NCBI GenBank assembly: GCA_031278075.1 | Contig: JAITLE010000216.1 | Span: 1 to 49,429, forward strand | Reading direction: 5' to 3' | Length of the DNA stretch: 49,429 nt | Source: Bifidobacteriaceae bacterium | GTDB lineage: Bacteria; Actinomycetota; Actinomycetes; Actinomycetales; WQXJ01 | Shown: positions 28,256 to 49,429 of the stretch, piece after piece | Position numbering within the stretch: the stretch's first letter is position 1 | Layout: each line of letters starts with the position of its first letter | The notes under the pieces: generated by a model | Database searches by the model: none | The model's input: only the letters and a program-made list of their open reading frames with translations | What the model was told of the DNA's origin: nothing | Made by a program: the position numbers and the translations under genes

Positions 28256-30358
28256 TCACTCGCCCCGGGTCTTCTTGACGATCTCCTCAGCAACGCTTCG
28301 GGGAACTTCAGCATAGCTATCGAACTGCATCGTGTAGACCGCACGCCCCTGAGTCTTGGAACGCAGATCCCCGACGTAGCCGAACATTGTGGACAGCGGC
28401 ACGCGGGCGCGCACCACCTTGACCCCGCCGGCGTCCTCCATCGACTGGATGTGGCCCCGCCGCGCGTTCAGGTCGCCGATCACCTCTCCCATGTGACGCT
28501 CGGGGGTCCGCACCTCCACGTCCATGATCGGTTCCAGCAGAGCCGGGTCGGCTTTCCGGACAGCCTCGCGGAAGACCATCGAACCGGCCGTCTTGAAGGC
28601 GAGCTCCGAAGAGTCGACCTCATGGTACTGGCCGTCCAGCAGGGTCGCTTTGACGCCCACCACGGGATAGCCCGCCAACGGTCCCGTGGACATCGCGTCC
28701 AAGATGCCGGCCTCGACGGACGGGACGTACTCCCTCGGGACCCGGCCGCCGACCACCTTGTTGGCGAACTCGAAGATCGCCTCGCCGTCCAACGGCAAGG
28801 GCGCCAACGCGATCTGCACCTTGGCGTACTGGCCGGAGCCACCGGTCTGCTTCTTGTGGGTGTACTCGACCTTCTCGACCGGCCGCCGGATCGTCTCACG
28901 GTAGGCGACCTGGGGCCTCCCGATGTTCGCGACCACCTTGAACTCCCGCCGCATGCGGTCCACCAAGATGTCGAGGTGGAGTTCGCCCATCCCCGCGATG
29001 ATCGTCTGTCCGGTGTCCGGGTTGAGGGACACGCGGAACGTCGGGTCCTCCTCCGCGAGCTTTTGGATGGCGGTCGACAGCTTCTCCTGGTCGGAGCGCG
29101 AGTTCGGCTCGATCGCCACCTGGATGACAGGTTCCGGGAACGTCATCGACTCGAGCAGCACCGGATGGGCCGGGTCGCACAACGTGTCGCCAGTGGTGGT
29201 GTCCTTCAGCCCGACCACGGCGTAGATGTGGCCGGCGGTGATGTCCGGGACCGGGTTCTCCTTGTTCGAGTGCATCTGGAACAGTTTGCCGATCCGCTCC
29301 TTGCGGCCCTTGGCGGAGTTCAACACCGCCGACCCCTGCGCCACATGCCCCGAATACACCCGAACATAAGTCAGCTTGCCATAGAACGGGTGGGCGACCA
29401 CCTTGAACGCCAGCGCCGCGAACGGCTCGGCTGCCGAAGGCAGCCGGATGATCTCGTGAGACGCGTCCTTCGGGTCGAAGCCGAGCATCGGCGGCACGTC
29501 CAGCGGCGACGGGAGGTAGGCGATGACGGCGTCCAGCATCGGCTGCACACCCTTGTTCTTGAAGGCGGAACCACAAAACACCGGGAAGACCTCGCCCGCC
29601 AAGGTCATGGCGCGAACGCCCGCCATGATCTCTTCGGAGGACAGCGACCCGGTCTCGAGGTACTTCTCCAGGAGCTCCTCAGATCCCTCGGCGGCGGTCT
29701 CCATCAGGGCGGCGCGGTATTCGGCCGCTAGACCAGCTAGATCCTCGGGGATCGGCTCGACCTTGTAATCCTCGCCCTTCTTGACCTCGCCCGCCCAGGT
29801 CAACGCACGCATCTCCAGCAGGTCGACCACGCCCCGGAAGGAGTTCTCCGAACCGATCGGCAACTGCATCACGACAGGCCGGGCGCCCAACCGGTCCACG
29901 ATCGTCTTGACCGTGAAGAAGAAATCCGCCCCGAGTTTGTCCATCTTGTTGATGAAGCAGATCCGCGGCACGTTGTACTTGTCAGCCTGCCGCCAGACGG
30001 TCTCCGACTGGGGCTCGACGCCCTCCTTGCCGTCGAAGACGGCCACCGCCCCGTCCAACACCCTGAGGGACCGCTCCACCTCGACCGTGAAATCCACGTG
30101 GCCCGGAGTGTCGATGATGTTGACCTGGTGATCCTTCCAGAAGCAAGTGGTCGCGGCGGATGTGATCGTGATGCCGCGTTCCTGCTCCTGCTCCATCCAG
30201 TCCATCGTCGAAGCCCCGTCGTGGGTCTCCCCGATCTTGTAGTTGATGCCCGTGTAAAACAAGATGCGCTCGGTGACGGTGGTCTTACCGGCGTCGATGT
30301 GCGCCATGATGCCGATGTTGCGGACCTGCTTCAGGTCGGTCAGCACGTCCAGTGCCAA
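28256..30358 (-). CDS. fusA: elongation factor G
   Basis: 700 aa: [26 protein letters not shown] ... [10 protein letters not shown] ... full-length EF-G-like sequence. Confidence 0.98.
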
Positions 30359-30418
30359 GGGGTTTTCCTCACTCTTCTTCCGTCCGGCCCGCCGCCGGTC
30401 CGACCCACCGCCCGGCTG

Positions 30419-30889
30419 TCACCAGCGGTAGTGGGCGAACGCGCGGTTGGCCTCAGCCATCTTGTGGGTGTCCTCGCGGCGTTTGACCGCCGCGCCCAAG
30501 CCGTTTGAGGCGTCGATGATCTCGTTCATCAGACGCAAGGTCATGGTCTTCTCGCGCCGGGCCCGGCTGTAGCCCACCAGCCAGCGCAGCGAGAGGGTGG
30601 TGGCGCGGCCGGGCTTGACCTCGACCGGCACCTGGTAGGTGGCGCCGCCGACGCGACGCGACTTGACTTCCAGCGAGGGGCGGATGTTGTCCAGGGCGCG
30701 TTTGAGCAACGTCACGGCGTCACTCCCCGTCTTCTCGGCCGCGCCGTCCAGCGCGCCGTAGACGATCGACTCGGCGATGGTCTTCTTCCCGTCCAGCAGG
30801 ATCTTGTTGACCAACTGAGTGACCAGGGCGCTGCCGTAAACCGGGTCTTGCACCAGAGGGCGTTTGGGCGCCGGCCCCTTGCGCGGCAT
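30419..30889 (-). CDS. rpsG: 30S ribosomal protein uS7
   Basis: Track ORF trimmed to the ATG at 30889 ([20 protein letters not shown], 156 aa). TGATG overlap with the rpsL stop. Confidence 0.96.
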
Positions 30890-31263
30890 CAGCTCTTCTC
30901 CTTCTTGGCACCGTAGCGGGAGCGGGCTTGCTGGCGGCCGCGCACACCCTGCGCGTCGAGCGCGCCGCGCACAATCTTGTACCGGACCCCAGGCAGATCG
31001 CGCACGCGCCCGCCGCGGACCAGCACAATCGAGTGCTCTTGCAGGTTGTGGCCCACCCCGGGGATATAGGCGGTCACCTCGACACCATTCGACAACCGCA
31101 CCCGCGCCACCTTCCGCAGCGCCGAGTTCGGCTTCTTCGGAGTGGTGGTGTACACACGCGTGCAGACACCGCGACGCTGCGGGGATCCCTTCAAAGCAGG
31201 GGTCTTGGTCTTCCCCGCTTTGGCGGTCCGGCCTTTGCGGACCAGCTGCTGGATAGTGGGCAC
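30889..31263 (-). CDS. rpsL: 30S ribosomal protein uS12
   Basis: 124 aa: [55 protein letters not shown]. Confidence 0.97.
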
Positions 31264-31546
31264 TGGCTCTCCATCTTGGGTTGGTTGCGGAAGTGATCGG
31301 CTCAGGCGCGCGTGAGCGCGCCGCGCTAGCCCGCCAAGGCAGGCACACGAGCGATTAGGCTACCGCGGCGCCCGACGGCGCGTCAAAGCGAGGGGTCATC
31401 CATGCCCTGGCCATGTCGGCGCCGTGACCCGCCCCGCCGCTGACACCTCAGGGCCAAGCCCAGCCGCAGCGGCGACATGGACGACCCCTGGACAATCCCG
31501 TCAAGGCGCGCGGCGGCGGACCAAGGAGCCGACGGAGCCGCCAGCG

Positions 31547-32776
31547 TCACTCCACCAGGGTCCCCAACTCCCCCAACGCCGCCGTGATCTCGTGGATCGA
31601 CTCCTCGAAGGCCGCCCGGTCCACCGGCGCCACCCCGTTCAGGCAGCGCAGCGCCAACTCCCGCCAACTGGCGATCTGGTCGAGCCCTTGAGCCAGTTGC
31701 CGGTCGATCGGCTCGACCAGCCCCTCCAGCTCGCGCGACAGCCCCAGCCGGGGAACCTGCAGCCGCCACGCGGTCAACAGCTTCTGGAATTGCCCGAACT
31801 GCGCGGAACACCGCGTCACGCCCTCGGAAGTCCAGCGCAGCGCAGCCGACGACTTGGCGACTTGTTCCGCGAGCCGCCCCACGTCATCGTTCATCGCCTC
31901 GCAGAGCGCCGCGATGTGAGCCGAGCCGCCTGCCGGCGCGGCGCCCTCGTGCACCTCCCGGCTGAAACGGATCACCATATCGGTGTGCAGCCGCGCCAGC
32001 GCGATCCCGAAACGCAGCCGCAGCACAGTGGCGCGCACGGCCGCCAAACATTCGGCGAGCGCCGCGACTATCCCGTGCAGGTCGCATCCCAACGCCGTCA
32101 TCGCCTGCGCGGTGGACGCCAGGACCGGCGCCCGCTCCGCGACGCCCGCTGATGCCCGGCACGCGGCCCCGGTCACCTCGCCGAGCGAGTCGATCGTGGC
32201 GGCCAGCTCCTGCGAGGCGATGAGCAACAACTCGGCCAGCGTCTGCAGCGAGCCCAAGCGCCCCAGGACCCCGTCCAGGCGTCGTTGCGAAGCGACGGCC
32301 GCCCGCAGGATGCGTCCCGCCACGCCGCCGATCACCGCGGTCTCGGCCCACTGCGCGGCGGCGGCCACCCGCGCTGCCGTCTCAGCGGGCAACGCCGCCA
32401 GCAAGAACTCCTCGTAACACGCGAAATCCGCTAAGGCCAGCGGCCGTTCCAAGGCGGCGTCCCCGCTGCCAGCCGCCCGATGCCGACCGGCCCCAGCCTC
32501 CCCGCCAGCTCGCTCCACCGACCCGGCGCCGTCGCGCGTCCACCGGCCCGCTTCCCAGGTGGGTTTCGCGCGCGGCGCAGAATGAGCCGGCGGCAGACCC
32601 GCCGGCCCGCCGCCAGCCGAAGCCCAAAAGAAAGCCAACTCGTCCGCGGTCAGCACCCGGGGCGCGCCGCTCAACTCCGTCGGTTCCAGATCTGCCCGCC
32701 ACATGATGGGCCAGCCGTCCGAACTGCGGGTTTGCCGTGTGGCGCCCCGCGTGCGGCTGATCGTCACAACAGCCAT
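31547..32776 (-). CDS. hypothetical protein: low-complexity N-terminus plus uncharacterised helical domain paralogous to the C-terminal domain of the PAS protein at 44714-46135
   Basis: 409 aa. Long colinear similarity to the other copy (LRFGIALARLHTDMVIRF vs LRFRIALAQLHNDMVINF; FQKLLTAWRLQVPRLGLS vs FQKFLTTWRIQVPRFGVS). A possible -10 TATTAT lies at 32881-32886. Confidence 0.6.
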   Translation of the reverse strand: MAVVTISRTRGATRQTRSSDGWPIMWRADLEPTELSGAPRVLTADELAFFWASAGGGPAGLPPAHSAPRAKPTWEAGRWTRDGAGSVERAGGEAGAGRHRAAGSGDAALERPLALADFACYEEFLLAALPAETAARVAAAAQWAETAVIGGVAGRILRAAVASQRRLDGVLGRLGSLQTLAELLLIASQELAATIDSLGEVTGAACRASAGVAERAPVLASTAQAMTALGCDLHGIVAALAECLAAVRATVLRLRFGIALARLHTDMVIRFSREVHEGAAPAGGSAHIAALCEAMNDDVGRLAEQVAKSSAALRWTSEGVTRCSAQFGQFQKLLTAWRLQVPRLGLSRELEGLVEPIDRQLAQGLDQIASWRELALRCLNGVAPVDRAAFEESIHEITAALGELGTLVE

Positions 32777-33026
32777 CTCGCCCTGCCTTCCCTACGCCCG
32801 CCGGATCGGCGCGGCGCCATCCGGTTGCGGCCGACGGACCGGGAAGTCTGGTGCTGGGGGCCTGCCCTGAAAGACCGCGGATAATATTTCTCTTACCGTA
32901 CCGTGTGCCCGGCCGACAGACCTCGCCCTAGGGCCATTCGAGCGGCGCCGATTAGGTGACCTTGCTCACACTCTCCGCACGGGACCCACGACTCGTGGGC
33001 GGCGGGGGCGGCGTGGGCGGCCCAGA

Positions 33027-33053
33027 CCGCGCGCGGGGCGGCCCCGCGCGCGG
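33027..33053 (-). terminator. GC-rich hairpin downstream of rpoC
   Basis: 12-bp perfect stem CCGCGCGCGGGG/CCCCGCGCGCGG with a 3-nt loop, 11 nt after the rpoC stop. A second small hairpin CCCACG/CGTGGG lies at 32985-32999. No U-tract. Confidence 0.5.
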
Positions 33054-33063
33054 CCGGCCAACT

Positions 33064-36000
33064 TCAGTCCACGTAGTCGTCGTAGGGCAGCGGCGGCAGA
33101 TCGCCCAGGATGATGCCGTCCTCGCCGAGCGTCGGATAGTCGACGATCTCCTCGTAGCCGAAGGCGGGATACAACTCAGCCTTCGCCTCGTCGGTGGGCT
33201 CGACCACGACGTGGCGGTACCGCGGCAGACCCGTGCCGGCGGGGATCAGCTTGCCGATGATCACGTTCTCCTTCAAGCCCAGCAGCGAGTCCTGTCGGCC
33301 CGAGATAGCCGCCTCGGTCAGCACCCTGGTGGTCTCTTGGAACGACGCGGCCGAGAGCCACGAGTCCGTCGCCAGGGACGCCTTCGTGATCCCCATCAGC
33401 TCGGAACGGCCCTGCGCGCCTTGCCCGCCCTCAGCGAGGACACGCCGGTTCTCGTCCTCGAACTTGTCGCGCGCGACCAACTCGCCCGGAAGCAGAGTCG
33501 TGTCGTTCGGCTCCAGGACGGTGACCCGCCGCAGCATCTGGCGGACGATCACCTCGATGTGCTTGTCGTGGATGTCCACACCCTGCGACCGGTAGACCGC
33601 CTGGACCTCATGCACCAGGTGCTCCTGGGCTTTGCGCGGGCCCTGGACGCGCAACACCTTCTTCGGGTCCACAGCGCCCACTGTCAACGGCTGGCCCACT
33701 TCGACCGTCTCGCCCTCGGACACCTTCAAGCGCTGCCGCTTCGAGACGATGTACGGGTGCTCTTGGCCGTCGTCGGAGACGATCACGATCTGCCGCAGAC
33801 GCTCCGAATCGTCGATCGAGACCTTGCCGGCGGCCTCCGCGATCGGCGCCTCGCCCTTGGGCGTGCGCGCCTCGAACAGCTCCTGCACGCGGGGCAGACC
33901 CTGTGTGATGTCATCCGCCGCCGCGACGCCGCCCGTGTGGAACGTGCGCATCGTCAGCTGCGTGCCCGGTTCGCCGATCGACTGCGCCGCGATGATCCCG
34001 ACCGCCTCGCCTATGTCGACCAGCTTGCCCGTCGCGAGCGACCGGCCATAGCACTTCGCACACGTCCCCACCCGCGACTCACAGGTCAGCACGGAGCGCA
34101 CCTTGACGCTCTCCACGCCATGCGCGATCAGGTTGTCGATCATCACATCGCCCGCGTCCGCGCCGACCGGCGCCAGGATGCGGCCGTCGGGGCCGACCAC
34201 ATCCGTGGCCAGCGTCCGGGCGAACACCGAGGTCTCCACCTTCGGGTGGCGGAGCGGTTTGCCGTTCGGCCCAGCCTCCGCGATCGGCAGCGTCAGTCCG
34301 CGTTCCGTCCCGCAGTCTTCTTCGCGCACGATCACGTCCTGGGACACATCGACCAACCGCCGGGTCAAATACCCCGAGTCCGCGGTCCGCAACGCGGTGT
34401 CCGCCAAACCCTTGCGGGCGCCGTGGGTGGCGATGAAGTACTCCACCACGGACGGGCCCTCGCGGTAGTTCGACTTGATCGGCCGGGGGATGATCTCGCC
34501 CTTCGGGTCCGCCACCAAACCGCGCATCCCCGCGATCTGCCGGACCTGCATCCAGTTGCCGGCCGCGCCGGAGGAGACCATCCGGTAGACGGTGTTGCGC
34601 TCGGGGAAGTTCTGGCGCATCGCCGCGTCGACCTCGTCGGTCGCTTTGGTCCAGATCTCGATCAGCTCATGGCGCCGCTCGTCGTCGGTGACCAGGCCTT
34701 CGTCGTACTGTTCCTGGATCGCCTCGGCCAACGCCTCGTACCGGTTCAAGATCTCCTGCTTGGACGCCGGCGCCACCACGTCGGAGAAGCTGATCGTCAC
34801 CCCGGAACGGGTCGCCCAGTGGAAACCGGCCTCCTTCAGCGCGTCGAGCGCCGCCGCCACCTCCACCTTCGGGTACTTCTCTGCGAGGTCGTTGACGATG
34901 CCGCTCAGCCGCTTCTTGTCGACCATCTCGTTGACGTAGGGATAGTCGACCGGCAACGCTTCGTTGAACAGCGCGCGCCCGAGAGTCGTCTCCAGATCGA
35001 CTGTCTCCAATTCGGAGCTGGCCACCTCTTCGCCCGGGGCCTGGGGGCGCATGTAGTCGGTCATGCGAATCGTGACATTCGCGCCCAAAGCCAGCTCGTC
35101 GGCATCGTACGCCATGATGGCCTCCGCCACGGAGGAGAACTTCCGGCCCTCGCCCTTCGCCCCGTCGAGCTGGGTCGTCAAGTGGTTGATGCCGATGATC
35201 ATGTCCTGAGTGGGGATGGTCACCGGGCGGCCGTCGGACGGCTTCAGAATGTTGTTGGAGGACAACATCAAGATGCGGGCCTCCGCCTGGGCTTCCGCCG
35301 AGAGCGGCAGGTGGACCGCCATCTGATCGCCGTCGAAGTCCGCGTTGAACGCGCCGCAGACCAACGGGTGCAGGTGGATCGCCTTGCCTTCGACTAGCTG
35401 CGGCTCGAACGCCTGAATGCCGAGCCGGTGCAAGGTCGGAGCACGGTTGAGCAACACCGGGTGTTCGGTGATGACCTCCTCCAACACGTCCCACACCACC
35501 GACTGCTGGCGCTCCACCATCTTCTTGGCGTTCTTGATGTTCTGCGAGTGCTGCAGCTCCACCAGGCGCTTCATGACGAACGGTTTGAACAGCTCCAACG
35601 CCATCGCCTTCGGCAGGCCGCACTGATGCAGCTTCAAGGTCGGCCCCACCACGATCACGCTACGGCCGGAGTAGTCGACCCGCTTGCCCAACAGGTTCTG
35701 GCGGAAACGGCCCTGCTTGCCCTTCAGCATGTCGCTGATGGACTTGAGCGGCCGGTTGCCCGGGCCGGTCACCGGCCGGCCACGCCGCCCGTTGTCGAAC
35801 AGCGAGTCCACGGCCTCCTGGAGCATCCGCTTCTCGTTGTTCACGATGATCTCCGGGGCGCCCAAGTCGATCAAGCGCTTGAGCCGGTTGTTCCGGTTGA
35901 TGACCCGGCGGTACAGGTCGTTCAGGTCGGATGTCGCGAACCGGCCGCCATCTAGCTGAACCATGGGCCGCAGGTCCGGCGGGATCACCGGGATGCAATC

Positions 36001-36942
36001 CAGCACCATGGCCTCCGGCCGGTTGTCGGTCTGCAGGAAGGCGTTGACGACACGCAACCGCTTCAGGGCGCGGATCTTGCGCTGGCCCTTGCCGTTCTTG
36101 ATGATCTCCCTCAGGGTGACCGACTCGCCCTCCAAGTCGAACGTCTCAAGGCGGCGCTGGATCGCGGCGGCGCCCATCGCGCCCTTGAAATAGGACCCGA
36201 ACCGGTCCTGCATCGAGCGGTACAGCAGCTCGTCGCCTTCGAGGTCGGCGACTTTCAGGTTCGCGAAACGATCCCAGATCGCCTCCAGGCGTTCGACTTC
36301 CTTGCGGGCGCGCTCGCGGATCGCGGCCAGCTCACGGCTGGCCGAGGCCTCGACTTTGCGGCCCACGGCCGCCTTGGCGCCCGCGGCCTCCAGGTCCCTC
36401 AAATCAGCGCGGAGCTTGTTCAGCCGCGCGTCCTGGGCCGCCTCGGCGTCACGTTCGATCCTCGCCTGGTCCAGCTCGATCTCGGCCCTGAGCGAGTCCA
36501 GATCGGCGGCGCGGGCCTCCGTGTCCACATCGGTGATCATGTAGGCCGCGAAGTAGATGACCTTCTCCAGGTCCTTCGGCGCCAGGTCCAGCAGGTAGCC
36601 GAGACGCGACGGGACGCCCTTGAAGTACCAGATGTGGGTCACCGGAGCGGCCAGCTCGATGTGCCCCATGCGCTCGCGGCGCACCTTGGACCGGGTCACC
36701 TCGACGCCGCAGCGTTCACAGATGATGCCCTTGAACCGCACCCGCTTGTATTTGCCGCAAGAGCACTCCCAGTCCCGGGTCGGCCCGAAGATCCGTTCGC
36801 AGAACAGCCCTTCCTTCTCGGGCTTCAAAGTGCGGTAGTTGATCGTCTCGGGCTTCTTGACCTCGCCGTGGGACCAGCTGCGGATCTCGTCCGCCGTGGC
36901 CAGCCCAATCTTGATTCCGTCGAAGGTGTTGACGTCCAGCAA
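33064..36942 (-). CDS. rpoC: DNA-directed RNA polymerase subunit beta'
   Basis: 1292 aa: [38 protein letters not shown] ... [12 protein letters not shown]. Confidence 0.98.
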
Positions 36943-36993
36943 GTCAGTCCCTGCTTCCTCGTTCTTTGCGCTTTCGTTAAGTTATGCCTGCCG

Positions 36994-40533
<3,540 letters not shown>

Positions 40534-40665
40534 AGTCCCTCCCGTATAGAAAAAAGCACGCGGCGCAGCACTGAGGCTCAAACATTGAGTGGGCAAGAGG
40601 CACAGGACAGCGCAGGGAGCTAGCCTAGCCTCGAATTCGCGCCTTGTCCAGCGCCGTACGCCCTC

Positions 40666-41880
40666 CTAGTCGACTGCGGTGGTCAACTCGAAGATCGGGA
40701 GGTACAGACAGATCAGGATGGCGCCGACGATCGAGCCCACCATGACGATCAGCACCGGCTCGATGATCGAGGTGATGGCGGTCGTGGCCTGCTGCACCTC
40801 GTCGTCGTAGAACTCGGCGACCTTCTCCAGCATCGAGTCGAGGGCGCCCGCCTCCTCGCCGACCGAGACCATGCGGGAGATCATCGGGCCGAAGATCGGC
40901 TCAGCCGCGATCGCCTTGCCGAGCGAGCTGCCGACGGTGACCTGTTCCTTGACGCGGGCGACGGCATCGGTCACCACCACGTTGCCGGCCGTCTCCCCCG
41001 TGATCTCAAGCGTTTGGACGATCGGCACGCCGACCCGGCTCATGGTGGCGATGGACCGGGACAGCCGGGCCAGGGAGACCTTGAGCAACAAACCGCCTAT
41101 GATCGGCAGCTTCAACTTGATCGGGTCAAGCTTCTCGCGCACCGCGAGATCGTTCTTGTGGTTGCTCCACCACCAGCCCATGAGCAGCAGCAACACGAGG
41201 AGCGGCGCCCCGGCGATCTTCAACAGACCGGACAGGCCGACCAGCACCTTCGTCGGCACCGGCAACTCCTTGCCGAGGTCGGCGAAGATGCCTTCGAAGA
41301 CGGGCACGATGAACAGCAGCATCGCGACGACCACGATCGCGGCGAAGATCAGCACCACGATCGGGTAGACCATCGCGGACTTGACCGCTCGCCGCAGCCG
41401 CAACTCCGCCTCCAGTTGCTCTGCCACCGACGAGAGCACCTGGTCGAGGTAGCCACCGGCCTCGCCCGCGCGGACCATCGCCAGGATCACCGGCGAGAAG
41501 TCCTTCGGGTGTTTGGCCAGCGCGTCCGCCAGGGTGGACCCGGTCTCGACGTCCGAGGCGACTTGGCGGAGCACCTTCTGCAACGCGGTGGAGCCGGTCT
41601 GGTCCGCGATCGCGTTGAGCGACTGGAGCAACGAGAGGCCCGCGTTGACCATCGTGGCGAGCTGGCGGATCGTCACCGCCACGTCCTTCGGCTTGGCGGT
41701 GGAGCTGCCGAAATTGATCTCGGTGTGCAGGCCGCCGCTCGCGGCCTCGCGGATGTCGATCGGGGTGAGACCCGCCTCACGCAGGTGGCGGGCCACCGCC
41801 CGCTGGTCGGGGCCCTCGATCTTGCCGGACTGCGTGGAGCCCCCGGCGATCACTGTGTATTCGAAGGTCTTGGTCGCCAT
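40666..41880 (-). CDS. pilC: type IV pilus platform protein PilC (T2SS-F family)
   Basis: 404 aa. Two T2SSF-type repeats and three hydrophobic segments, with a typical PilC/GspF layout. Confidence 0.9.
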   Translation of the reverse strand: MATKTFEYTVIAGGSTQSGKIEGPDQRAVARHLREAGLTPIDIREAASGGLHTEINFGSSTAKPKDVAVTIRQLATMVNAGLSLLQSLNAIADQTGSTALQKVLRQVASDVETGSTLADALAKHPKDFSPVILAMVRAGEAGGYLDQVLSSVAEQLEAELRLRRAVKSAMVYPIVVLIFAAIVVVAMLLFIVPVFEGIFADLGKELPVPTKVLVGLSGLLKIAGAPLLVLLLLMGWWWSNHKNDLAVREKLDPIKLKLPIIGGLLLKVSLARLSRSIATMSRVGVPIVQTLEITGETAGNVVVTDAVARVKEQVTVGSSLGKAIAAEPIFGPMISRMVSVGEEAGALDSMLEKVAEFYDDEVQQATTAITSIIEPVLIVMVGSIVGAILICLYLPIFELTTAVD

Positions 41881-41886
41881 GGCGGA

Positions 41887-43038
41887 TCACATCCTTCCGA
41901 ATGGATTGTTGAGCCCCGACGCGCCCTGCTGCACCCGGGCGGAACGGCCCAGCATGCGGGCGAACTCATCCGGCATGCGGGCGTTCTCGAGGCCTTCCTC
42001 AAAGGTGATGTCGCCCTGGCGCACCAAGTCGGCCAGCGACTGGTCCAGGGTGTGCATGCCCTCTTCTCCGCCGGAGTGCAGCACGGAGTAGATCTGGTGC
42101 AGCTTGTTCTCGCGGATCATCGCGCGGATCGCGGGAGTCGCCCGCATCAGCTCGGTCGCCACGACCCGGCCACGGCCGTCGGCCCGGCGGCACAAGGTCT
42201 GCGACAGCACCGCCTGAAGGGTGATCGCCAGCTGAGAGCGGATCTGATCCTGGTGGGTCGACTCGAATTGGTCCACCAAGCGGTTGATGGACTGCGCCAC
42301 ACCCTGCGTGTGCAGCGTGGCGAACACGAGGTGGCCGGTCTCGGCGGCGCGCAGCGCGGTCTCCATGGTCTCTTTGTCGCGCAACTCGCCGACCAAGATG
42401 ATGTCCGGGTCTTGGCGCAGCGCGTGCTTCAACGCTTCCGCGAAGGAAAGCGTGTCCACGCCGATCTCGCGTTGAGCCACGAGGCACCGGTTGGAGTTGT
42501 GCTGGTATTCGATCGGATCCTCAATCGTCAAGATGTGCCCCGAGCGAGTCCGGTTCGCCAGGTCGATCACCGCCGCGAGCGTGGTGGACTTGCCGGAGCC
42601 GGTCGGCCCGCAGACCAGCACCAGACCGCGCGGCAGGCCGGCGAACGTCTTGACCACCGCGGGGATGCGCAACTCCTCCAACGGCCGGATGACGTCTGGG
42701 ATGACGCGGAACGCCGCCGCGATCGAGCCGCGGTCCCAGAACAGGTTGGCGCGGAACATGCGCCCGGAGGGCACCTGGCAGGAGTAGTCGAGCTCCAGGT
42801 TGTCGTCGAACTTTTGGCGCTGGGTGCGCGTCAGCATGCCCAAGAGCTGCTCGTAGAGCGCGTCCTCGCCGGGCGCGTCGAAGCCCGGCAGCGGGGTCAG
42901 CTCCCCCGACATCCGCACGATCGGGGGCAGCAGCGCAGTCAAGTGGAGGTCTGACGCGCCCATCGCCGCGGACTCTTCCAAGGCTTGCACCAAGTCAAGC
43001 GTTTGCTCATCGCCGTACACTTCGGCCGCAGCGTTCAT
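41887..43038 (-). CDS. pilT: type IV pilus retraction ATPase PilT
   Basis: 383 aa: GASDLHL ... GPTGSGKSTTLAA ... ILVGELRD ... ATLHT ... AIRAMIRENK (AIRNLIRE-type motif). Confidence 0.92.
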   Translation of the reverse strand: MNAAAEVYGDEQTLDLVQALEESAAMGASDLHLTALLPPIVRMSGELTPLPGFDAPGEDALYEQLLGMLTRTQRQKFDDNLELDYSCQVPSGRMFRANLFWDRGSIAAAFRVIPDVIRPLEELRIPAVVKTFAGLPRGLVLVCGPTGSGKSTTLAAVIDLANRTRSGHILTIEDPIEYQHNSNRCLVAQREIGVDTLSFAEALKHALRQDPDIILVGELRDKETMETALRAAETGHLVFATLHTQGVAQSINRLVDQFESTHQDQIRSQLAITLQAVLSQTLCRRADGRGRVVATELMRATPAIRAMIRENKLHQIYSVLHSGGEEGMHTLDQSLADLVRQGDITFEEGLENARMPDEFARMLGRSARVQQGASGLNNPFGRM

Positions 43039-44717
43039 GCCACCACCCTCAACAGTTCCTCGACGGACGTCTGTCCCTGCGCGACTTTCGCCCAGCCGTC
43101 TTGTCGCAACGTGATCATGCCTTGTTCGCGCGCGAGTTCGCCCAGTTCACGGGTCGACTTGCGCAAAGCCGTGAGGTGTTCCAGCTCCCTGGTCACCGGC
43201 ATCACCTCATGCACCGCGAGCCGGCCCTTGAAGCCGGTGTTGGCGCACGCGGAACAGCCCTTCGGCCGGTACAGGTTGGGCGGCGGCGGCTCCCGGAAAA
43301 TCCAGTCCGCGCGCAGCATCTCCTGCTCCGGCTCGCTCGGCGGGTACGGTTCGCGGCAGCGCTCGCACAGCCGGCGCGCCAGGCGCTGCGCCACCACGCA
43401 GTCCAACGCCGACGCCACGAGGAACGGCTCGATCCCCATCTCCGTCAGGCGGGTCACAGCCGACGGAGCGTCGTTCGTGTGGAGGGTGGACAGCACCAGG
43501 TGGCCGGTCAGGGCCGCCTCGACCGCGATCTGCGCGGTCTCGCCGTCGCGGATCTCGCCGACCAGCACCACATCCGGGTCCGCCCGCAGGATCGACCGGA
43601 GCGCGGCGGCGAACGTCAAGCCCGCCTTCGGGTTGACCTGGACCTGGTTGACCCCAGCCATGCGATACTCCACCGGGTCCTCGATGGTGATCACGTTCAC
43701 CTCGGGCCGCGAGATCTCGCGCAGCGTGGCGTAAAGCGTGGTCGACTTGCCGGAGCCGGTCGGGCCCGTGGCGAGGATCATCCCGTACGGCTTGGTGTAA
43801 GACTTCTTGTATAGCTGGAAAGAGGCCTCCGAGAACGACAACTTGCGGAGGTCGACCTGCACCGCGGAGGTGTTCAGGATACGCATGACGACCTTCTCGC
43901 CCCACACCGTCGGCAAGGTGGCGACGCGCAAGTCCACATCGTTGCCATCCACGTTGACGGAGATGCGGCCGTCCTGCGGCTTGCGCCGCTCGGCGATGTC
44001 GATGTCCGCCATGATCTTGATGCGCGAGATGACTTGCGACTGGATCGACTTCGGCGCGCTTTGCATCTCATGGAGCACACCGTCGATCCGGTAGCGCACG
44101 CGCAGGTCCAATTCCTCCGGCTCCAAGTGGATGTCGGAGCATCCGTCATGGATCGCCTGCGAGATCAGCAGATGCGCCCAGCGGACGACAGGCGAATCCT
44201 CTTGGACGATGTCGGCCACGGAGACGCTGACCTGCTGCCGCTCTTCCTCCCGCGCCGAGGAGTCGAGGGACTGGCCGATCGAGTCGATCTCCGAATCGGA
44301 CCGCACGTGGCGGCCGATCGCGCGTTCCAGGGCGCCGCGTTCGGCGACCGTCGGGATCACCGCGGCGCGCAGATAGGACCGCACGTCATCGATCGCCACC
44401 AGGTTGCCCGGCTCGGCCATCGCCACGACCACCGCGTCGCCCTCGCGGGCGATCGGCAGCAGCAGATGGCGCCGGCAGATCCCGCCGGGCACGGAACCGG
44501 CGACCCTGGGGTCGATCGCGAACGCGTCGAGGTCGACAAACCTCAGACCGGCGGCCTCCGCGAGGATCGGGATGAGGTCCTCCTCGCGCAGGGCGCCACT
44601 GGTGACGAGGGCTTGGCTGAGCGTGATGCCCTCCATCGCCTGGGCGCGGGTCGCCTGATCCAGCTGCGCCTGGGAGACCAGGCCACGGGACAGCAGGGTC
44701 TGCTCAAGGGCGCTCAT
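43035..44717 (-). CDS. pilB: type IV pilus assembly ATPase PilB (GspE family)
   Basis: Track ORF trimmed to the ATG at 44717 (MSALEQTLLSRGLV, 560 aa), an ATGA overlap with the upstream stop. T2SSE N-domain, GPTGSGKSTTLYA, VLVGEIRD, and tetracysteine CERC...CSAC. Confidence 0.92.
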   Translation of the reverse strand: MSALEQTLLSRGLVSQAQLDQATRAQAMEGITLSQALVTSGALREEDLIPILAEAAGLRFVDLDAFAIDPRVAGSVPGGICRRHLLLPIAREGDAVVVAMAEPGNLVAIDDVRSYLRAAVIPTVAERGALERAIGRHVRSDSEIDSIGQSLDSSAREEERQQVSVSVADIVQEDSPVVRWAHLLISQAIHDGCSDIHLEPEELDLRVRYRIDGVLHEMQSAPKSIQSQVISRIKIMADIDIAERRKPQDGRISVNVDGNDVDLRVATLPTVWGEKVVMRILNTSAVQVDLRKLSFSEASFQLYKKSYTKPYGMILATGPTGSGKSTTLYATLREISRPEVNVITIEDPVEYRMAGVNQVQVNPKAGLTFAAALRSILRADPDVVLVGEIRDGETAQIAVEAALTGHLVLSTLHTNDAPSAVTRLTEMGIEPFLVASALDCVVAQRLARRLCERCREPYPPSEPEQEMLRADWIFREPPPPNLYRPKGCSACANTGFKGRLAVHEVMPVTRELEHLTALRKSTRELGELAREQGMITLRQDGWAKVAQGQTSVEELLRVVA

Positions 44718-46135
44718 CGCACACCTCGGGGCATCGCGAGGCCCATCGAGTTGAACACGGCCTGGGTGTGCTCGTAATTGTCGCGGATCACATTGCGCGA
44801 TGCCGCGTTGATTCGACTGAGGATCTCCTCCATCGGGATGCGGTCGAACGGCCGCGCCTCCGCGACGCACGCCCGCGCCAGGTGGCGTAGGGCGTTCAGC
44901 TCTTCGTGGGTGCGGTTGAGCTGCGCGTCGATCGGTCCGACGAGCGGTCCGAGCTGCGCCGACACGCCGAAGCGCGGCACCTGGATGCGCCAGGTGGTGA
45001 GGAACTTCTGGAACTGGGTGAGATGGGCGCCAGCGGATTCGACCTGGGCGCCCACATCGCCGAGCACCCGATGGGCGCTCTCCAAGCCGGATCCGACGGC
45101 TTCGACGTCATCGGCCAGCGCATAGCACAGCAGCGGCACGTACAGGAAGCCCTCCGGCGGCGCGAAGCCGTCCAGGGTCTCGAGGGCGAAGTTGATCACC
45201 ATGTCGTTGTGGAGTTGCGCCAAGGCGATCCTGAAGCGTAGCTCCATCACCCCGAGGCGGATCTGGGAAAGCCGCTCCGGCAAGGGGGCGATGACCTGCT
45301 CCGCCCCCGCGCCGACCTGGGTCATCGCGTTCGCGGTGCTGGCCAAGATGGGAGCGTGGGACGCGACCCGCTGGGAGGCGTTGAGCGAGATCTGCGTGAC
45401 CTCCGCCAGCTGCGCCACGGTGCCGCCGAGCTGCTTCGAGCCGGCCTGCAAAGCTTCCGCCAACTGCTGGAGCGAGTCGAGGCGGCCCAGCAGATCGCCG
45501 ATCAGCTCATCCATCGCGACGGCGTTGTTCAGGATGTCGGCGATGTCGCCGTGCGCCTCGGGCCGGTAGGTCCTCCGCGCCGAGAGCGACACGCGGGTCT
45601 GGGTCTCGGCGGGCAACGCCGTGTACATGAACTCGTCATAGGAGGGGAAGCCCGCGTCGGACAGCATCCCCGCCAGGGAGGTCAAGCCGATCGTGGCGGT
45701 CTTGGACCGGTTGGCGCCTTTCGCCTTCCCGTCCTCCTCGATCGGCAGCGCCTGGCCGTAGAGCCCAAGCGCCGCGTTCCACAGCGGCTCGAATCTTGGC
45801 GAGGAACGGACCGACAAGAAGCCGCTGCCCATTGGCGTGACGGTGGCGAACACCTGATAGTCGAACCCGTCTTTGGCCAGATTCTTGACGTAGGCCGCGA
45901 ACGGTTTCCCGCCCAGCAGGGTGTCCCACATCAGCTTGAAGGCGCCCGCCGGCATCAGCGGGTTGCGAATCAGGTTGTGGGGCGCGCCCATCAACTCGTC
46001 CCGCGGGAACGCGGACAGCCGAGCGAACACGCTGTTGGCCGCGGTTATGACGCCCTTCCTGTCGGTGCAAGAGAAGAACAGCTCGTCGACACCGACCCGC
46101 CGTTCTTGCCCTATGCGGGATTTGCGATCAAGCAT
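44714..46135 (-). CDS. Aer-type PAS domain protein with uncharacterised C-terminal helical domain
   Basis: 473 aa. Residues about 15-115 (ITAANSVFARLSAFPRDELMGAPHNLIRNPLMPAGAFKLMWDTLLGGKPF) match the E. coli Aer FAD-PAS core ([30 protein letters not shown]). The rest is helical, with no canonical MCP hairpin motif and no TM segment. Confidence 0.75.
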   Translation of the reverse strand: MLDRKSRIGQERRVGVDELFFSCTDRKGVITAANSVFARLSAFPRDELMGAPHNLIRNPLMPAGAFKLMWDTLLGGKPFAAYVKNLAKDGFDYQVFATVTPMGSGFLSVRSSPRFEPLWNAALGLYGQALPIEEDGKAKGANRSKTATIGLTSLAGMLSDAGFPSYDEFMYTALPAETQTRVSLSARRTYRPEAHGDIADILNNAVAMDELIGDLLGRLDSLQQLAEALQAGSKQLGGTVAQLAEVTQISLNASQRVASHAPILASTANAMTQVGAGAEQVIAPLPERLSQIRLGVMELRFRIALAQLHNDMVINFALETLDGFAPPEGFLYVPLLCYALADDVEAVGSGLESAHRVLGDVGAQVESAGAHLTQFQKFLTTWRIQVPRFGVSAQLGPLVGPIDAQLNRTHEELNALRHLARACVAEARPFDRIPMEEILSRINAASRNVIRDNYEHTQAVFNSMGLAMPRGVR

Positions 46136-46733
46136 TGCGCAACCTATCCATAGCGACTCGGACCACCGCCACCAAGGCTTGCTTGGCCGCCTCCTTGGAG
46201 CGGGCGTCGGAATACATGATCGGGATGTCGGGGCCGACCGCCAACGCGTCGCGGACGTCCTCGAGGGTGTGCCGCGCTATCCCGTCGAAGCAGTTGATCA
46301 CCACGACGAACGGGATGTTGCGGGACTCGAAATAGTCCACCGCGGTGAACCCTTGGTCCAGGCGGTCGGTGTCGACCAGCACGACGGCGCCGATCGCGCC
46401 GCGCACCAAGTCGTCCCACATGAACAAGAAGCGTTCCTGCCCCGGTGTGCCGAACAGATAGAGCCAGAGCGACTCGCCCAACGCGATCCTGCCGAAGTCC
46501 ATGGCGACCGTCGTGGTGTCCTTCTGCGCGGCCCGCCGGCCGGCATCGTCCACCCCGAGGGAGTGTTCCGTCATGTCGGCTTCTGTGTTGAGCGGCTCGA
46601 TATCTGACACCGCGCCGATAAACGTCGTCTTGCCCACGGCGAAGCCACCCGCGACCACGATCTTGACGACCGTCGGGGGCTTGGTCCTGGTCACTGCGCC
46701 GCTGCGGGCTTGCTCATAGCTCGGATATTGCAT
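46128..46733 (-). CDS. cvnD: conservon-type small Ras-like GTPase (CvnD-like ATP/GTP-binding protein)
   Basis: 201 aa: KIVVAGGFAVGKTTF (P-loop), LYLFGTPGQERF (switch II), VVINCFDG. Confidence 0.85.
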   Translation of the reverse strand: MQYPSYEQARSGAVTRTKPPTVVKIVVAGGFAVGKTTFIGAVSDIEPLNTEADMTEHSLGVDDAGRRAAQKDTTTVAMDFGRIALGESLWLYLFGTPGQERFLFMWDDLVRGAIGAVVLVDTDRLDQGFTAVDYFESRNIPFVVVINCFDGIARHTLEDVRDALAVGPDIPIMYSDARSKEAAKQALVAVVRVAMDRLRNA

Positions 46734-47526
46734 TCAGAACACTCTCCAGTAACTCCAGGGTTTGCTCGCGGCTGACCGCGCCGGCGGTGAGGCCGCCTGC
46801 TCCGGCGACCGTGTCATGAACTAACAGGACGCCCGACTCGGCCAAGTCCGACACCAGGACCTTGACCACCCCGACCGGCAACTTCAAGTGGGCTGAGACT
46901 TCCGCGACCGTCAAATATGTGGTCGCGATCTGCCGGACGATCGCCAACTCCTCGGGCGACAAGCCCTTCCCCTTGTCGGCCAGCCACTGCTGGTTGGCCA
47001 CCTCCAAGATGGACTCGAGCCGGGTGTCGGTGGTGGCCTGGGTGCGGCCCCGTGTCACGACAAACGGCCGGACGGAGGACACGTCATGGTCTTCATTCGG
47101 GGAACCTTCGGGACGTTTGTCCGCCGCGGGCCGCGACCCGGCCGCCTGCGGCGGCAACGAGCCGGTGTGCGTCGGCAGCGAGCCGGTGTGATGCGGCGCC
47201 GTGTTCGTGCCCGCCGCCGGCTCGGGGCCGCGAGCCGGCGGAGTCGGCGGCGAAGCCGAATCGACCGCTTCGGCCTGCGCCGCCCGAGCCGCCCTGGTCC
47301 GCTCCGCCTCACGCGCCGCCGAAGTCAGGGGCCTGCGCCGCTCCACCTGGACAGCCCGCCCGCCGCGCGGCGCTGAAGGCCGCCGCGGCTCGGCCGTGAC
47401 CGGTGGCTCGCCAGGCGCCGGCACCCGGATGTTCGCCGGGTTCGTCAGCGAGTCGAAGGACCGCTCGGCGAGGCGCCCGTCGGGGCGTCCGGCGCGGAGG
47501 CGGGCCTGGGTTTGATCGGGCGTCAC
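46714..47526 (-). CDS. cvnC: DUF742 protein (CvnC-like) with about 150-aa disordered Pro/Ala/Arg-rich N-terminus
   Basis: 270 aa. C-terminal VRPFVVTRGRT ... SPEELAIVRQIATTYLTVAEVSAHLKLPVGVVKVLVSDLAESGVLLV. Confidence 0.8.
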   Translation of the reverse strand: MTPDQTQARLRAGRPDGRLAERSFDSLTNPANIRVPAPGEPPVTAEPRRPSAPRGGRAVQVERRRPLTSAAREAERTRAARAAQAEAVDSASPPTPPARGPEPAAGTNTAPHHTGSLPTHTGSLPPQAAGSRPAADKRPEGSPNEDHDVSSVRPFVVTRGRTQATTDTRLESILEVANQQWLADKGKGLSPEELAIVRQIATTYLTVAEVSAHLKLPVGVVKVLVSDLAESGVLLVHDTVAGAGGLTAGAVSREQTLELLESVLNAISEL

Positions 47527-47978
47527 AGGCCACCTCGCACAGTGCCTGTCGTGGGCAGCGAATCACGCATCTGGGCGATCAGGGCAGGGGTGAGGAACGT
47601 CTCGGCTTTGCCGACCAGGGTGGCCATCTCGTAGCCGACCAGGCCGACATCCGAGTCGGGTTCGCACAGGACTGCCAAGACCGATCCGTTCGAGATCGAC
47701 ATCAGCATCACGAACCCCTCCTCGTATTCGATCACGGACTGGCGGTCACGGCCGATCCCGAGTTCGCGCCCCGCCCCGCGAGCTAGCGAGGACATTCCCG
47801 AGCAGATCGCTGCCATGATGTCGCCGACGGTACGGTCGGCGCCGCCTGACATGGTCATAAGCAGCCCGTCCGCGCTGACGACCACTCCCAGCCTGGCGCC
47901 GGGGGTGGAGCGGACGAACGAGTCGAGGAGCCAGGTCAGGTCCTGCCTGTTCTCCCCGTGCTGGTAGCTGGTGGTCAT
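47523..47978 (-). CDS. cvnB: roadblock/LC7 domain protein (CvnB-like, MglB-type fold)
   Basis: 151 aa: LTWLLDSFVRSTPGARLGVVVSADGLLM ... SVIEYEEGFVMLMSISNGSVLAVL. The ATG is preceded by AAGGAGGAATC. Confidence 0.85.
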   Translation of the reverse strand: MTTSYQHGENRQDLTWLLDSFVRSTPGARLGVVVSADGLLMTMSGGADRTVGDIMAAICSGMSSLARGAGRELGIGRDRQSVIEYEEGFVMLMSISNGSVLAVLCEPDSDVGLVGYEMATLVGKAETFLTPALIAQMRDSLPTTGTVRGGL

Positions 47979-48043
47979 GAGATTCCTCCTTGAATGGGCG
48001 AGCTGGTGATCCCTTGCGGCGTTGCGGGGTTGGCGTTCATGCC

Positions 48044-49429
48044 TTACCCCTTACCGGCCGGCGCGCGGGATCCGCTGCGGCCACGCCTGGTGCCGAGTTG
48101 GAAAGCAGAGAGCGCCGACCGGATCTTGTCGGCGTCGCGGGCCTTGGGCGGCACTTTGGCGGGTTCCGCCACAGCAGGCACGGATGAGGCGCCCGATTGC
48201 CGCCGCGCCAAGCTGGAGGCGGGCCTCGACTCGGTCTTCTCTGGCTTGTAGGTGTTCAGCCCCGCCAATTCAGCGAGGGCCTCCTCCTGGATTGTGGCTC
48301 TCAGCGCGATCGCCGAACCGGCGATCGACGAGTTGAGATCCGGGATCGCCAGCGCCGCGTCGCCCCCGCCGCCTGGTTGCATGGTTCCGCCCGGTGAGAA
48401 GCCGCCCGTGGGCCGCCCGGTGGACGATGCCGTCCGGCCGTCCCCCGACATCGGCAACGGTCCCGTCGGGCCGACCGGGGCACGGGTCGGCAGCACGGGG
48501 CCGCTGGGGCCGCTTCGGACATCTTGGACACCGGGGGCGGCGCCGGGGCCGCCGCCCGGGAAGCCGGGCGCTGCGCCGAGATCCCCGGGAATCGGCGGGA
48601 GGCCGAGCGCGGGTCCCGGTGTGATGATCGCCGGCGCGGCGAATCCCGTCCGACCGCTTGGGCCGGGGCTCGCGCCGTCCGGGCTCGCGGCGCCGGGGCT
48701 CGGCTGACCGGGCGGAATGCCCGGTCCGGGGATGGAGCCTGGCGCGGGGAAGGCTGGCGCGCCACCGGGCGTGAAGGTCGGGGAGCCGGGCGGCGCCGCG
48801 GGCCCGCTCGGCGGCTGCGCGGGCGCGAAGCCGCCCACGGGGGCGGCCGGCCCCGCCGCTGGGCCGACTGCGACCGCAGGCGCCGGCTGGGCGGTCCGGT
48901 GTGCCGCCTGGGGCACACCGGGCCGGCTGAGCGGCGGGGCGGCGCCAATCGGCGGGATCAAGCCGGGTGGCACGGTGACATTCGGCGCGATGGCGCCGGG
49001 CGCGCTCGGCACCGGCGGGAAGGCCTCCAGCGGCCGGGCGACAAGGGGCCGGCGGGCCGTCGCCGGGCGGCGCGCCATCGGCGCGTCGGACCCGATGGGC
49101 CGCTCGCCGGTGGCTAGGGCTTCGGACAAGGCGGGCAGGTCTCCCGCCGGCGGCGCCGCAGCCCCGGGGCGGGCGGTCGGCCGCGCCCTATGCCCCGCCG
49201 GCTGGGCTGGTCCCGCCGGGGCGCCTCCGAAAGGGAACTGAGTTCCGGGGCCCGCGGGTCCCGGCGGCCTGATGACCGGTGGCGCCGTGGCGCCAGTCCT
49301 GTCGTGGAGAGCCTGCCCGTCCGCGGAATGGCGGGGCAAGACGGAACTCGGGTTCGCGCCCTCGCCCAGCGGCGTGAAACGCGCCCCGAGCGGCACTATC
49401 CCCATCCCGCCGGGCCGGTCCGTCGGGTC
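48044..49429 (-). CDS. partial CDS (5' end outside the window): Pro/Gly/Ala-rich C-terminal tail, probably of a CvnA-like sensor-kinase-like protein
   Basis: The reading frame is open to the window edge. More than 450 aa of low complexity, ending ...KIRSALSAFQLGTRRGR.... Assignment rests only on the conservon gene order cvnA-B-C-D; no catalytic domain is visible. Confidence 0.4.
   Translation of the reverse strand, partial: DPTDRPGGMGIVPLGARFTPLGEGANPSSVLPRHSADGQALHDRTGATAPPVIRPPGPAGPGTQFPFGGAPAGPAQPAGHRARPTARPGAAAPPAGDLPALSEALATGERPIGSDAPMARRPATARRPLVARPLEAFPPVPSAPGAIAPNVTVPPGLIPPIGAAPPLSRPGVPQAAHRTAQPAPAVAVGPAAGPAAPVGGFAPAQPPSGPAAPPGSPTFTPGGAPAFPAPGSIPGPGIPPGQPSPGAASPDGASPGPSGRTGFAAPAIITPGPALGLPPIPGDLGAAPGFPGGGPGAAPGVQDVRSGPSGPVLPTRAPVGPTGPLPMSGDGRTASSTGRPTGGFSPGGTMQPGGGGDAALAIPDLNSSIAGSAIALRATIQEEALAELAGLNTYKPEKTESRPASSLARRQSGASSVPAVAEPAKVPPKARDADKIRSALSAFQLGTRRGRSGSRAPAGKG

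Follow-up and report, generated by a model that had tools for sequence, protein, structure and literature searches.

Actinomycetota are rich in conservons, Streptomyces coelicolor having 13 copies, and as of 2026 the literature still describes conservon effectors as unknown. Here we describe a conservon that runs directly into the genes of a type IV pilus motor at the end (40666–49429, minus strand) of contig JAITLE010000216.1 of a metagenome-assembled genome labelled Bifidobacteriaceae bacterium at NCBI (assembly GCA_031278075.1), whose full 49,429 nucleotides we refer to as the window. With the conservons already described (cvnA-D of S. coelicolor and the Mfp system of mycobacteria) it shares the order of the four genes, the Robl_LC7 and DUF742 proteins and a Group-2 GTPase carrying INCFD and DAR motifs; with those that have a CvnE or CvnF it shares a fifth gene placed directly after cvnD, beside a CvnA without an extracytoplasmic sensor, and with the Mfp system it shares a likely effector (there MfpA) encoded immediately downstream. 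Unlike in these systems, the accessory protein is an Aer-type PAS protein rather than a P450 or GAF protein, CvnA of loci of this kind carries Asn at the autophosphorylated His, and pilus motor genes follow downstream, the module being sited between pilMNO and pilBTC in the termite-gut clade to which the window belongs.

Ras-like GTPases paired with a Roadblock GTPase-activating protein (GAP) work with type IV pili in Myxococcus xanthus (MglA/MglB and SofG) and Thermus thermophilus (MglAB), where they govern pilus function and the placement of PilB and PilT; at our locus the same association is suggested by the genes. In contrast to our locus, those systems use a Group-1 MglA that is not encoded with its pilus targets, have neither CvnA nor CvnC, take their input from Frz or RomR instead of a PAS protein, and belong to diderm hosts. 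A further likeness is to the PATAN regulators that bind PilB1 in Synechocystis and to PATAN-MglA/MglB neighbourhoods, in which regulators are linked to MglA/MglB-type modules, theirs acting directly on the extension ATPase, whereas the window has DUF742, a kinase-like CvnA and the PAS protein. The latter resembles Aer of Escherichia coli in its homologous PAS domain with the flavin contacts kept, but it is soluble, has a private helical domain, lacks a transmembrane segment, a HAMP domain and a methyl-accepting chemotaxis protein (MCP) tip, and in the termite clade carries the exchanges H58N and D60L. Full-text literature searches found no paper joining conservons or DUF742 to pil genes, in line with the initial annotation of this DNA, which knew of no described conservon with a pilus motor as its genetic output; for the regulation of actinobacterial pili, recent studies name WhiG and cyclic di-GMP (c-di-GMP) and not GTPases, and a paper on termite-gut Bifidobacteriaceae makes no mention of type IV pili.

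We hold with moderate confidence that the locus makes up the promoter-distal half of a type IVa pilus cluster, into which a specialised conservon has been built as a dedicated motor regulator. Its genes, in the direction of transcription, are the following.

48044–49429, minus strand: 3′ part of cvnA, encoding the Pro/Ala-rich C-terminus of the kinase-like conservon protein, truncated at the contig end.
47523–47978, minus strand: cvnB, a Roadblock/LC7 (MglB-like) protein of 151 aa (Robl_LC7 PF03259, E = 2.8e-17).
46714–47526, minus strand: cvnC, a DUF742 protein of 270 aa (PF05331, E = 6.6e-23, residues 150–265).
46128–46733, minus strand: cvnD, a Group-2 MglA-family small GTPase of 201 aa (ATP_bind_1, E = 7.5e-26).
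44714–46135, minus strand: the PAS gene, a putative accessory sensor of 473 aa (Aer-type PAS domain at 16–114, helical bundle at 116–463).
43035–44717, minus strand: pilB, type IVa extension ATPase of 560 aa (MshEN, E = 7e-19; T2SSE, E = 2e-138).
41887–43038, minus strand: pilT, retraction ATPase of 383 aa (TIGR01420 PilT/PilU, 443.8 bits, cut-off 319).
40666–41880, minus strand: pilC, inner-membrane platform protein of 404 aa (two T2SSF domains, E = 7e-63).

All eight minus-strand open reading frames proposed in the initial annotation were found where it had placed them, and recomputing the distances between them reproduced its values: from 5′ to 3′ cvnA/cvnB +65, cvnB/cvnC −4, cvnC/cvnD −20, cvnD/PAS −8, PAS/pilB −4, pilB/pilT −4 and pilT/pilC +6 nt, negative values being overlaps. 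The 65-nt gap between cvnA and cvnB holds an AAGGAGG Shine-Dalgarno sequence 7 nt 5′ of the cvnB ATG. Profile searches bore out the domain assignments (Robl_LC7, DUF742, ATP_bind_1 GTPase, T2SSE and T2SSF). The single translationally coupled operon that had been claimed is likewise predicted by equal overlaps in nine species-level relatives, in Cellulomonas sp. IC4_254 and in a related metagenome contig, and no terminator-like site lies between the operon genes, terminator-like matches overall being at chance level. A promoter scan found none, and an Rfam search of 30000–49429 returned no match.

The gene order and its junctions are preserved among relatives of the window. A CvnD scan with one genome per species yielded nine loci from related metagenome-assembled genomes (MAGs), all nine of which read cvnA-B-C-D-PAS-pilB-T-C-rpoB as far as each contig extends. 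Throughout this clade the junction overlaps equal those of the window, save for an apparent break of the PAS gene in locus L012 and ambiguous cvnC starts in L004 and L007, and the ATGA overlap between the PAS gene and pilB is found in 10 of 10 loci. The lower termite Glyptotermes is the source of at least the Gsp477 MAGs (PMC11707648). Where sequence reaches further upstream the order is pilD-pilM-pilN-pilO-RCC1-like-cvnA, and with pilBTC downstream this means that in the termite clade the conservon sits inside a type IVa pilus cluster. Protein identities within the clade are 94–97% for CvnB and 92–98% for CvnD, as against 87–90% for RpoB and 67–79% for PilC; the GTPase pair, being more conserved than RpoB, is thus under strong constraint.

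The gene between pilO and cvnA encodes an RCC1-like beta-propeller (L004:3639-5579 in the termite clade; L089:2432-3802 in a termite metagenome). RCC1 is the eukaryotic guanine nucleotide exchange factor (GEF) of Ran; the bacterial protein may simply be a pilus-associated propeller.

Outside the clade, the cultured Cellulomonas sp. IC4_254 (GCA_011603975.1) and a JGI contig carry cvnA-B-C-D-PAS-pilB-T-C followed by pilins, again with overlapping junctions. This cassette encodes a CvnA of 630 aa with one transmembrane helix, and its CvnD and PAS protein are 73% and 51% identical to those of the window. Its flanks are Aldedh and PTS genes, unlike the rpoB setting of the window, so the order of the cassette has been held across different genomic contexts. 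A third arrangement, on the environmental contig L090, has cvnA-B-C-D with an ATGA overlap to pilB, then pilT, pilC, a pilin and pilM-N-O-D, and no PAS gene. The adjacency is therefore not unique to one genome, which had been named as grounds for abandoning the proposal: the cassette is present in at least three lineages and in two different genomic settings. These distribution figures refer to the matches listed in the CvnD and PilB scans; IC4_254 was missed by the CvnD genome scan and was reached only through the CvnD homologue of L090, which also led to the JGI contig, and a metagenome scan with PilB gave at least 80 loci at 58–63% identity, L090 among them. We also considered whether the closest other CvnD homologues are linked to pili and rejected this, as none of the 71 next-best loci (CvnD identity at most 74%) has PAS or pil genes within 10 kb; all 71 are ordinary cvnABCD conservons.

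A different GTPase module was seen near pilB in other bacteria. Among the 46 environmental pilB loci that are related to that of the window and have enough upstream sequence, 10 (L107, L108, L115, L117, L128, L135, L144, L151, L152 and L164) have a Roadblock-PATAN-GTPase triad 260–2000 nt upstream of pilB. In L151 (6843–9588) it consists of a Roadblock protein of 281 aa, a protein of 424 aa with PATAN/DUF4388 and a winged-helix region, and a small GTPase of 191 aa, and it lies in a yceG-aroE context, L151 being the sole locus checked for this. The triad GTPases carry the motifs LNRSxG and CDAT and so belong to a subfamily other than that of CvnD. The triads suggest that control of pilB by GTPases is a recurrent theme in high-GC bacteria.

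That the window encodes a conservon, as initially proposed, is borne out by CvnB, CvnC and CvnD, which match their families, stand in A-B-C-D order and include a CvnD with Group-2 signatures. Its motifs are GGFAVGKT, GTPGQ, INCFD (a G4 without Lys) and SDAR (with the G5 DAR), and a G4 motif without Lys together with a G5 DAR motif defines Group-2 MglA proteins (PMC4316618); the canonical [NT]KxD G4 of Group 1 is absent from CvnD. The protein is 53–74% identical to the CvnD of ordinary conservons. By analogy with the mycobacterial Mfp system, in which GAP and GEF roles have been demonstrated for MfpD and MfpC respectively, CvnB is expected to be the GAP and CvnC the GEF for CvnD. CvnC has a low-complexity N-terminal extension of about 140 residues, and its length varies from 208 to 280 aa across the termite clade. 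In 8 of 10 clade loci, including the window, the cvnC start is called on the cvnB stop with the 4-nt overlap (the calls in L004 and L007 being the ambiguous ones), and the extension therefore appears to be translated. The public annotation of L004 gives a cvnC product of only 131 aa.

The type IVa trio of PilB, PilT and PilC is present in the window. PilT alone scores above the cut-off of its model (TIGR01420); the best NCBIfam model for PilB is TIGR02538 PilB at 615 bits, under the equivalog cut-off of 675, and the best models for PilC are type IV PilC models (E = 1e-106), also under the equivalog cut-off. No prepilin peptidase, PilM/N/O or type IV pilin gene was found within the window. In the orthologous loci L004, L008 and L013 pilD and pilMNO are located upstream, and pilins with G|FSLVELL signals come after pilC in L170, L171 and L090; no pilin gene was seen in the captured stretches of the termite-clade loci. 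The N-terminus of PilB (residues 6–54; window 44550–44717, minus strand) matches, below threshold, the MshE-type c-di-GMP-binding motif NF053729 (31.9 bits, cut-off 38), which hints at a second, c-di-GMP input to the same PilB motor.

The Pro-rich frame that had been reported to run off the window edge is indeed open to base 49429, and we identify it as the C-terminal part of CvnA: over the last 125 aa it shares 70% identity with the tail of the L004 orthologue, a protein of 859 aa with one N-terminal transmembrane helix and an HATPase_c domain (E = 1.9e-11); the tail in the window has no Pfam match of its own. The CvnA proteins of L004, L170 and L090 have HATPase_c or the N/G1/G2 boxes within the same gene order. 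Pilus-linked CvnA proteins have one transmembrane helix, are without a NIT or HAMP sensor and retain the N, G1 and G2 ATP-binding boxes. Across 77 aligned CvnA cores, for which the corresponding residue of the window lies beyond the contig end, the conserved His of LDHLATRMRR is exchanged for Asn in 9 of 9 pilus-linked proteins and kept in 67 of 67 others, so that a feature of conservons, the His of the dimerisation and histidine phosphotransfer (DHp) region within the LDH motif, is replaced in the pilus-linked group. In CvnA8 a ‘highly conserved’ H183 is needed for autophosphorylation (2026 study, PMC13343842), and we infer that the His of the LDH motif corresponds to it. The nine pilus-linked cores form an exclusive clade in a neighbour-joining tree, the method used, without support values, for all trees in this work. 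The canonical conservon of Actinotalea encodes a CvnA of 1300–1400 aa with NIT, HAMP and HATPase_c domains, and that of Pengzhenrongella sicca a CvnA of 1300–1400 aa with no Pfam match on record; neither conservon has PAS or pil genes. An LPTR in the Pro-rich tail was considered as the LPxR motif of CvnA and dropped: the LPRR of the L004 protein lies right after the kinase core, in a stretch that falls outside the window, upstream of the contig end, and LPTR could be a chance occurrence.

Of the proposed Aer-type PAS protein, the domain assignment holds but the implied identity of the whole protein with an Aer receptor does not. Residues 16–114 match the solved PAS domain of E. coli Aer (8dik, E = 1.3e-18; family profile E = 8e-34), Pfam PAS models hitting the 473-aa frame only below threshold, and in an AlphaFold2 model of the protein (mean predicted local distance difference test score, pLDDT, 93) the PAS part superimposes on 8dik with a TM-score of 0.80–0.84. 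The FAD (flavin adenine dinucleotide) contacts in the crystal structure of Aer are H53, R57, M69, W70, N85 and R115 (PMC9668731), and all six are kept, as H53, R57, M69, W70, N85 and R110 (equivalent to Aer R115), which predicts a flavin-type sensor. The termite clade alone has H58N and D60L (residues 58–60; window 45956–45964, minus strand), where His58 is present in 72 of 80 aligned family members and position 60 is mostly Asp or Glu; the Cellulomonas IC4_254 orthologue retains RHPEMP. Trp94 is replaced by Gln or Asp in all known pilus-linked copies.

Residues 116–463 are modelled separately as a bundle of long helices (AlphaFold2, pLDDT 94) that found no match among solved folds (best E = 1.8e-3, TM-score at most 0.43). 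An MCP signalling domain in this C-terminal part was considered and rejected, there being no MCP fold match and no Pfam HAMP or MCPsignal domain; a profile search of the domain gave only weak matches of the coiled-coil type, to the MCP structure 2ch7 (E = 5.6e-4). Because it lacks transmembrane, HAMP and MCP regions and its helical domain matches no solved fold, the protein is not an Aer receptor. The helical domain is rare, with only 237 representatives among 1.84 billion proteins, nearly all of about 450 aa with the domain sited behind a PAS domain. A general link of this family to pili or conservons was rejected, since four sampled members (in Cellulomonas KRMCY2, Amycolatopsis, an Actinomycetaceae genome and one further contig) stand alone; these four fall outside a 25-member subclade that holds every pilus-linked copy.

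The PAS gene lies directly after cvnD, overlapping its stop by 8 nt, and beside a sensor-less CvnA, which is the position and context of known accessory genes: CvnE (P450) and CvnF (GAF) accompany only sensor-less CvnA proteins, and cvnF8 (SCO6939) follows directly on cvnD8 (PMC13343842). By position and context the gene is most readily classed as a third kind of accessory gene of conservons. The family has a second paralogue between rpoC and rpsL (window 31547–32776, minus strand); it consists of the C-terminal helical domain only, is 41% identical to residues 66–445 of the PAS protein (P0014) and has no recognisable PAS motif, and an intact 477-aa copy occupies the same rpoC-rpsL position in a related MAG (L005).

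From these elements a pathway can be proposed. The cytoplasmic PAS protein would bind flavin as Aer does and report the redox or energy state of the cell, and it would act on the membrane-anchored, sensor-less CvnA as CvnF8 acts on CvnA8. Given that pilus-linked CvnA proteins have Asn for His and still keep the ATP-binding motifs, we propose that CvnA would use its conformation or serve as an ATP-dependent scaffold in signalling, instead of autophosphorylating that His, and would tip the balance between CvnB as GAP and CvnC as GEF and so set the nucleotide state of CvnD. CvnD-GTP would then act on the co-translated PilB, PilT and PilC, either as an on/off switch or by positioning extension versus retraction, the outcome being an energy-taxis-like control of pilus activity in a Gram-positive. 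This last step is proposed because of the conserved translational coupling and of precedent: the mycobacterial GTPase MfpB has as its binding partner MfpA, whose gene comes straight after the conservon, and in Myxococcus PilB and PilT are under the control of MglA and SofG (PMC4316618). The functional wiring of the GTPase module to the pilus motor is thus suggested by gene linkage. More tentatively, and with some doubt, these loci might constitute a distinct subfamily of actinobacterial G-protein systems (AGPS, another name for conservons) that has given up CvnA His phosphorylation, has gained a flavin-PAS accessory protein, and whose GTPase directly binds PilB/PilT and gates or positions them.

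Several points weigh against a conservon dedicated to the pilus motor, or against the pathway drawn for it. To our knowledge the characterised conservons act on gene expression or gyrase, and none on a motor. Every step of the mechanism is read from gene content, order, overlaps, conservation and residue patterns, and since the contig end cuts cvnA and leaves the kinase core of the window's own CvnA unreadable, the properties of that core are predicted from orthologues. The exchanges H58N and D60L could weaken flavin binding; Aer H58 and D60 presumably have a role in binding FAD. The CvnD tree, for its part, resolves no pilus-linked clade. In Cellulomonas biazotea a pilus cluster at aroE is without the GTPase module, as are 35 of the 46 environmental pilB loci, which makes the module an optional add-on. 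In the termite metagenome locus L089 (4426–7130; PilB 62% identical), pilMNO is followed by the RCC1-like gene, a CvnA-like gene and a PAS-like gene overlapping pilB, with no cvnBCD; the CvnA-like protein has lost the ATP-binding motifs and has Arg for His, the PAS-like protein has lost the flavin motif, and the locus gives the impression of a cassette that has decayed or been put to another use. The PAS gene is thereby separable from cvnBCD (L090 lacking the former, L089 the latter), so a linear pathway may be wrong.

The alternative that survives best, although we think it unlikely, is that the conservon controls the expression of the pil genes, by transcription or translation and through CvnC itself or an effector of CvnD, and not the motor proteins. 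Known conservon outputs are indeed expression, as Cvn8 represses a neighbouring lanthipeptide cluster and MfpC translationally regulates mfpA (PMC13343842), and a regulator encoded within its own target operon is common. The DUF742 of CvnC is a winged-helix-like domain, and the PATAN protein with a winged helix-turn-helix from the pilB-linked triads gives a weak DUF742/MarR-type match; DNA binding by DUF742, however, is not established. The module moreover lies downstream of pilMNO and overlaps pilB, an arrangement that fits stoichiometric co-production better than a promoter-proximal regulator, and the MglA and SofG precedents are post-translational.

It is also improbable, in our view, that the operon holds two independent regulators, the PAS protein acting on PilB via its helical domain and giving no input to CvnA, and the conservon acting separately. 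This would account for L090, where cvnABCD is coupled to pilB without a PAS gene, and for L089, where a PAS-like gene overlaps pilB without cvnBCD; the PAS gene, where present, always abuts pilB by an ATGA overlap, and members of its family elsewhere stand alone with no conservon nearby. Even in L089, however, a CvnA-like gene still accompanies the PAS-like one, and the position after cvnD beside a sensor-less CvnA matches the accessory rule of CvnE and CvnF. That the adjacency reflects synteny by descent or co-transfer with no regulatory link between conservon and pilus is very improbable: most copies do come from one termite-gut clade, where descent alone predicts synteny, but order and overlaps are held in two contexts (rpoB and Aldedh/PTS) at 51–73% protein identity, the pilus-linked CvnA proteins group exclusively with one another and share the His-to-Asn change, constraint is stronger on CvnB and CvnD than on RpoB, and a GTPase triad of another kind accompanies pilB in further loci, which together make mere hitch-hiking unlikely.

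On the reading that we prefer, a conservon acting as dedicated regulator of the pilus motor, the locus names PilB, PilT and PilC as candidate conservon effectors through conserved translational coupling, adds the Aer-like PAS protein as a putative third type of accessory protein, and places Gram-positives alongside Myxococcus and Thermus as bacteria whose type IV pili are under small-GTPase control. The natural CvnA variant without a phospho-accepting His also bears on how CvnA-type proteins signal. The pathway suggests that pilus-based adhesion or motility might be tuned to redox in wood- or fibre-associated gut actinobacteria. If PilB and PilT were gated directly, a conservon would have its first physically identified output, and the type IV pili of a Gram-positive their first energy-taxis-like or polarity-type control; the Roadblock-PATAN-GTPase triads would then make control of the pilus motor by GTPases a widespread trait of high-GC monoderms. 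As the cassette is present in the cultured Cellulomonas sp. IC4_254, the hypothesis is directly testable by genetics and biochemistry.

Downstream of pilC in the window come rpoB, rpoC, rpsL, rpsG and fusA on the same strand. The spacer between pilC and rpoB (40500–40665, minus strand) is about 150 nt long and has a T6 run just 5′ of the rpoB Shine-Dalgarno sequence and TTG start. RNA folding of two spacers was no better than that of shuffled sequence (z = 0.42 for the rpoB spacer and z = −0.23 for the other), and with no convincing terminator hairpin between pilC and rpoB, read-through into rpoB is possible. In the environmental loci L126 and L162 a match to rpoB is followed, a few kb downstream, by pilBTC, which is the opposite side compared with the window; pilus clusters may recurrently occupy the rpoB(-rpoC) neighbourhood.

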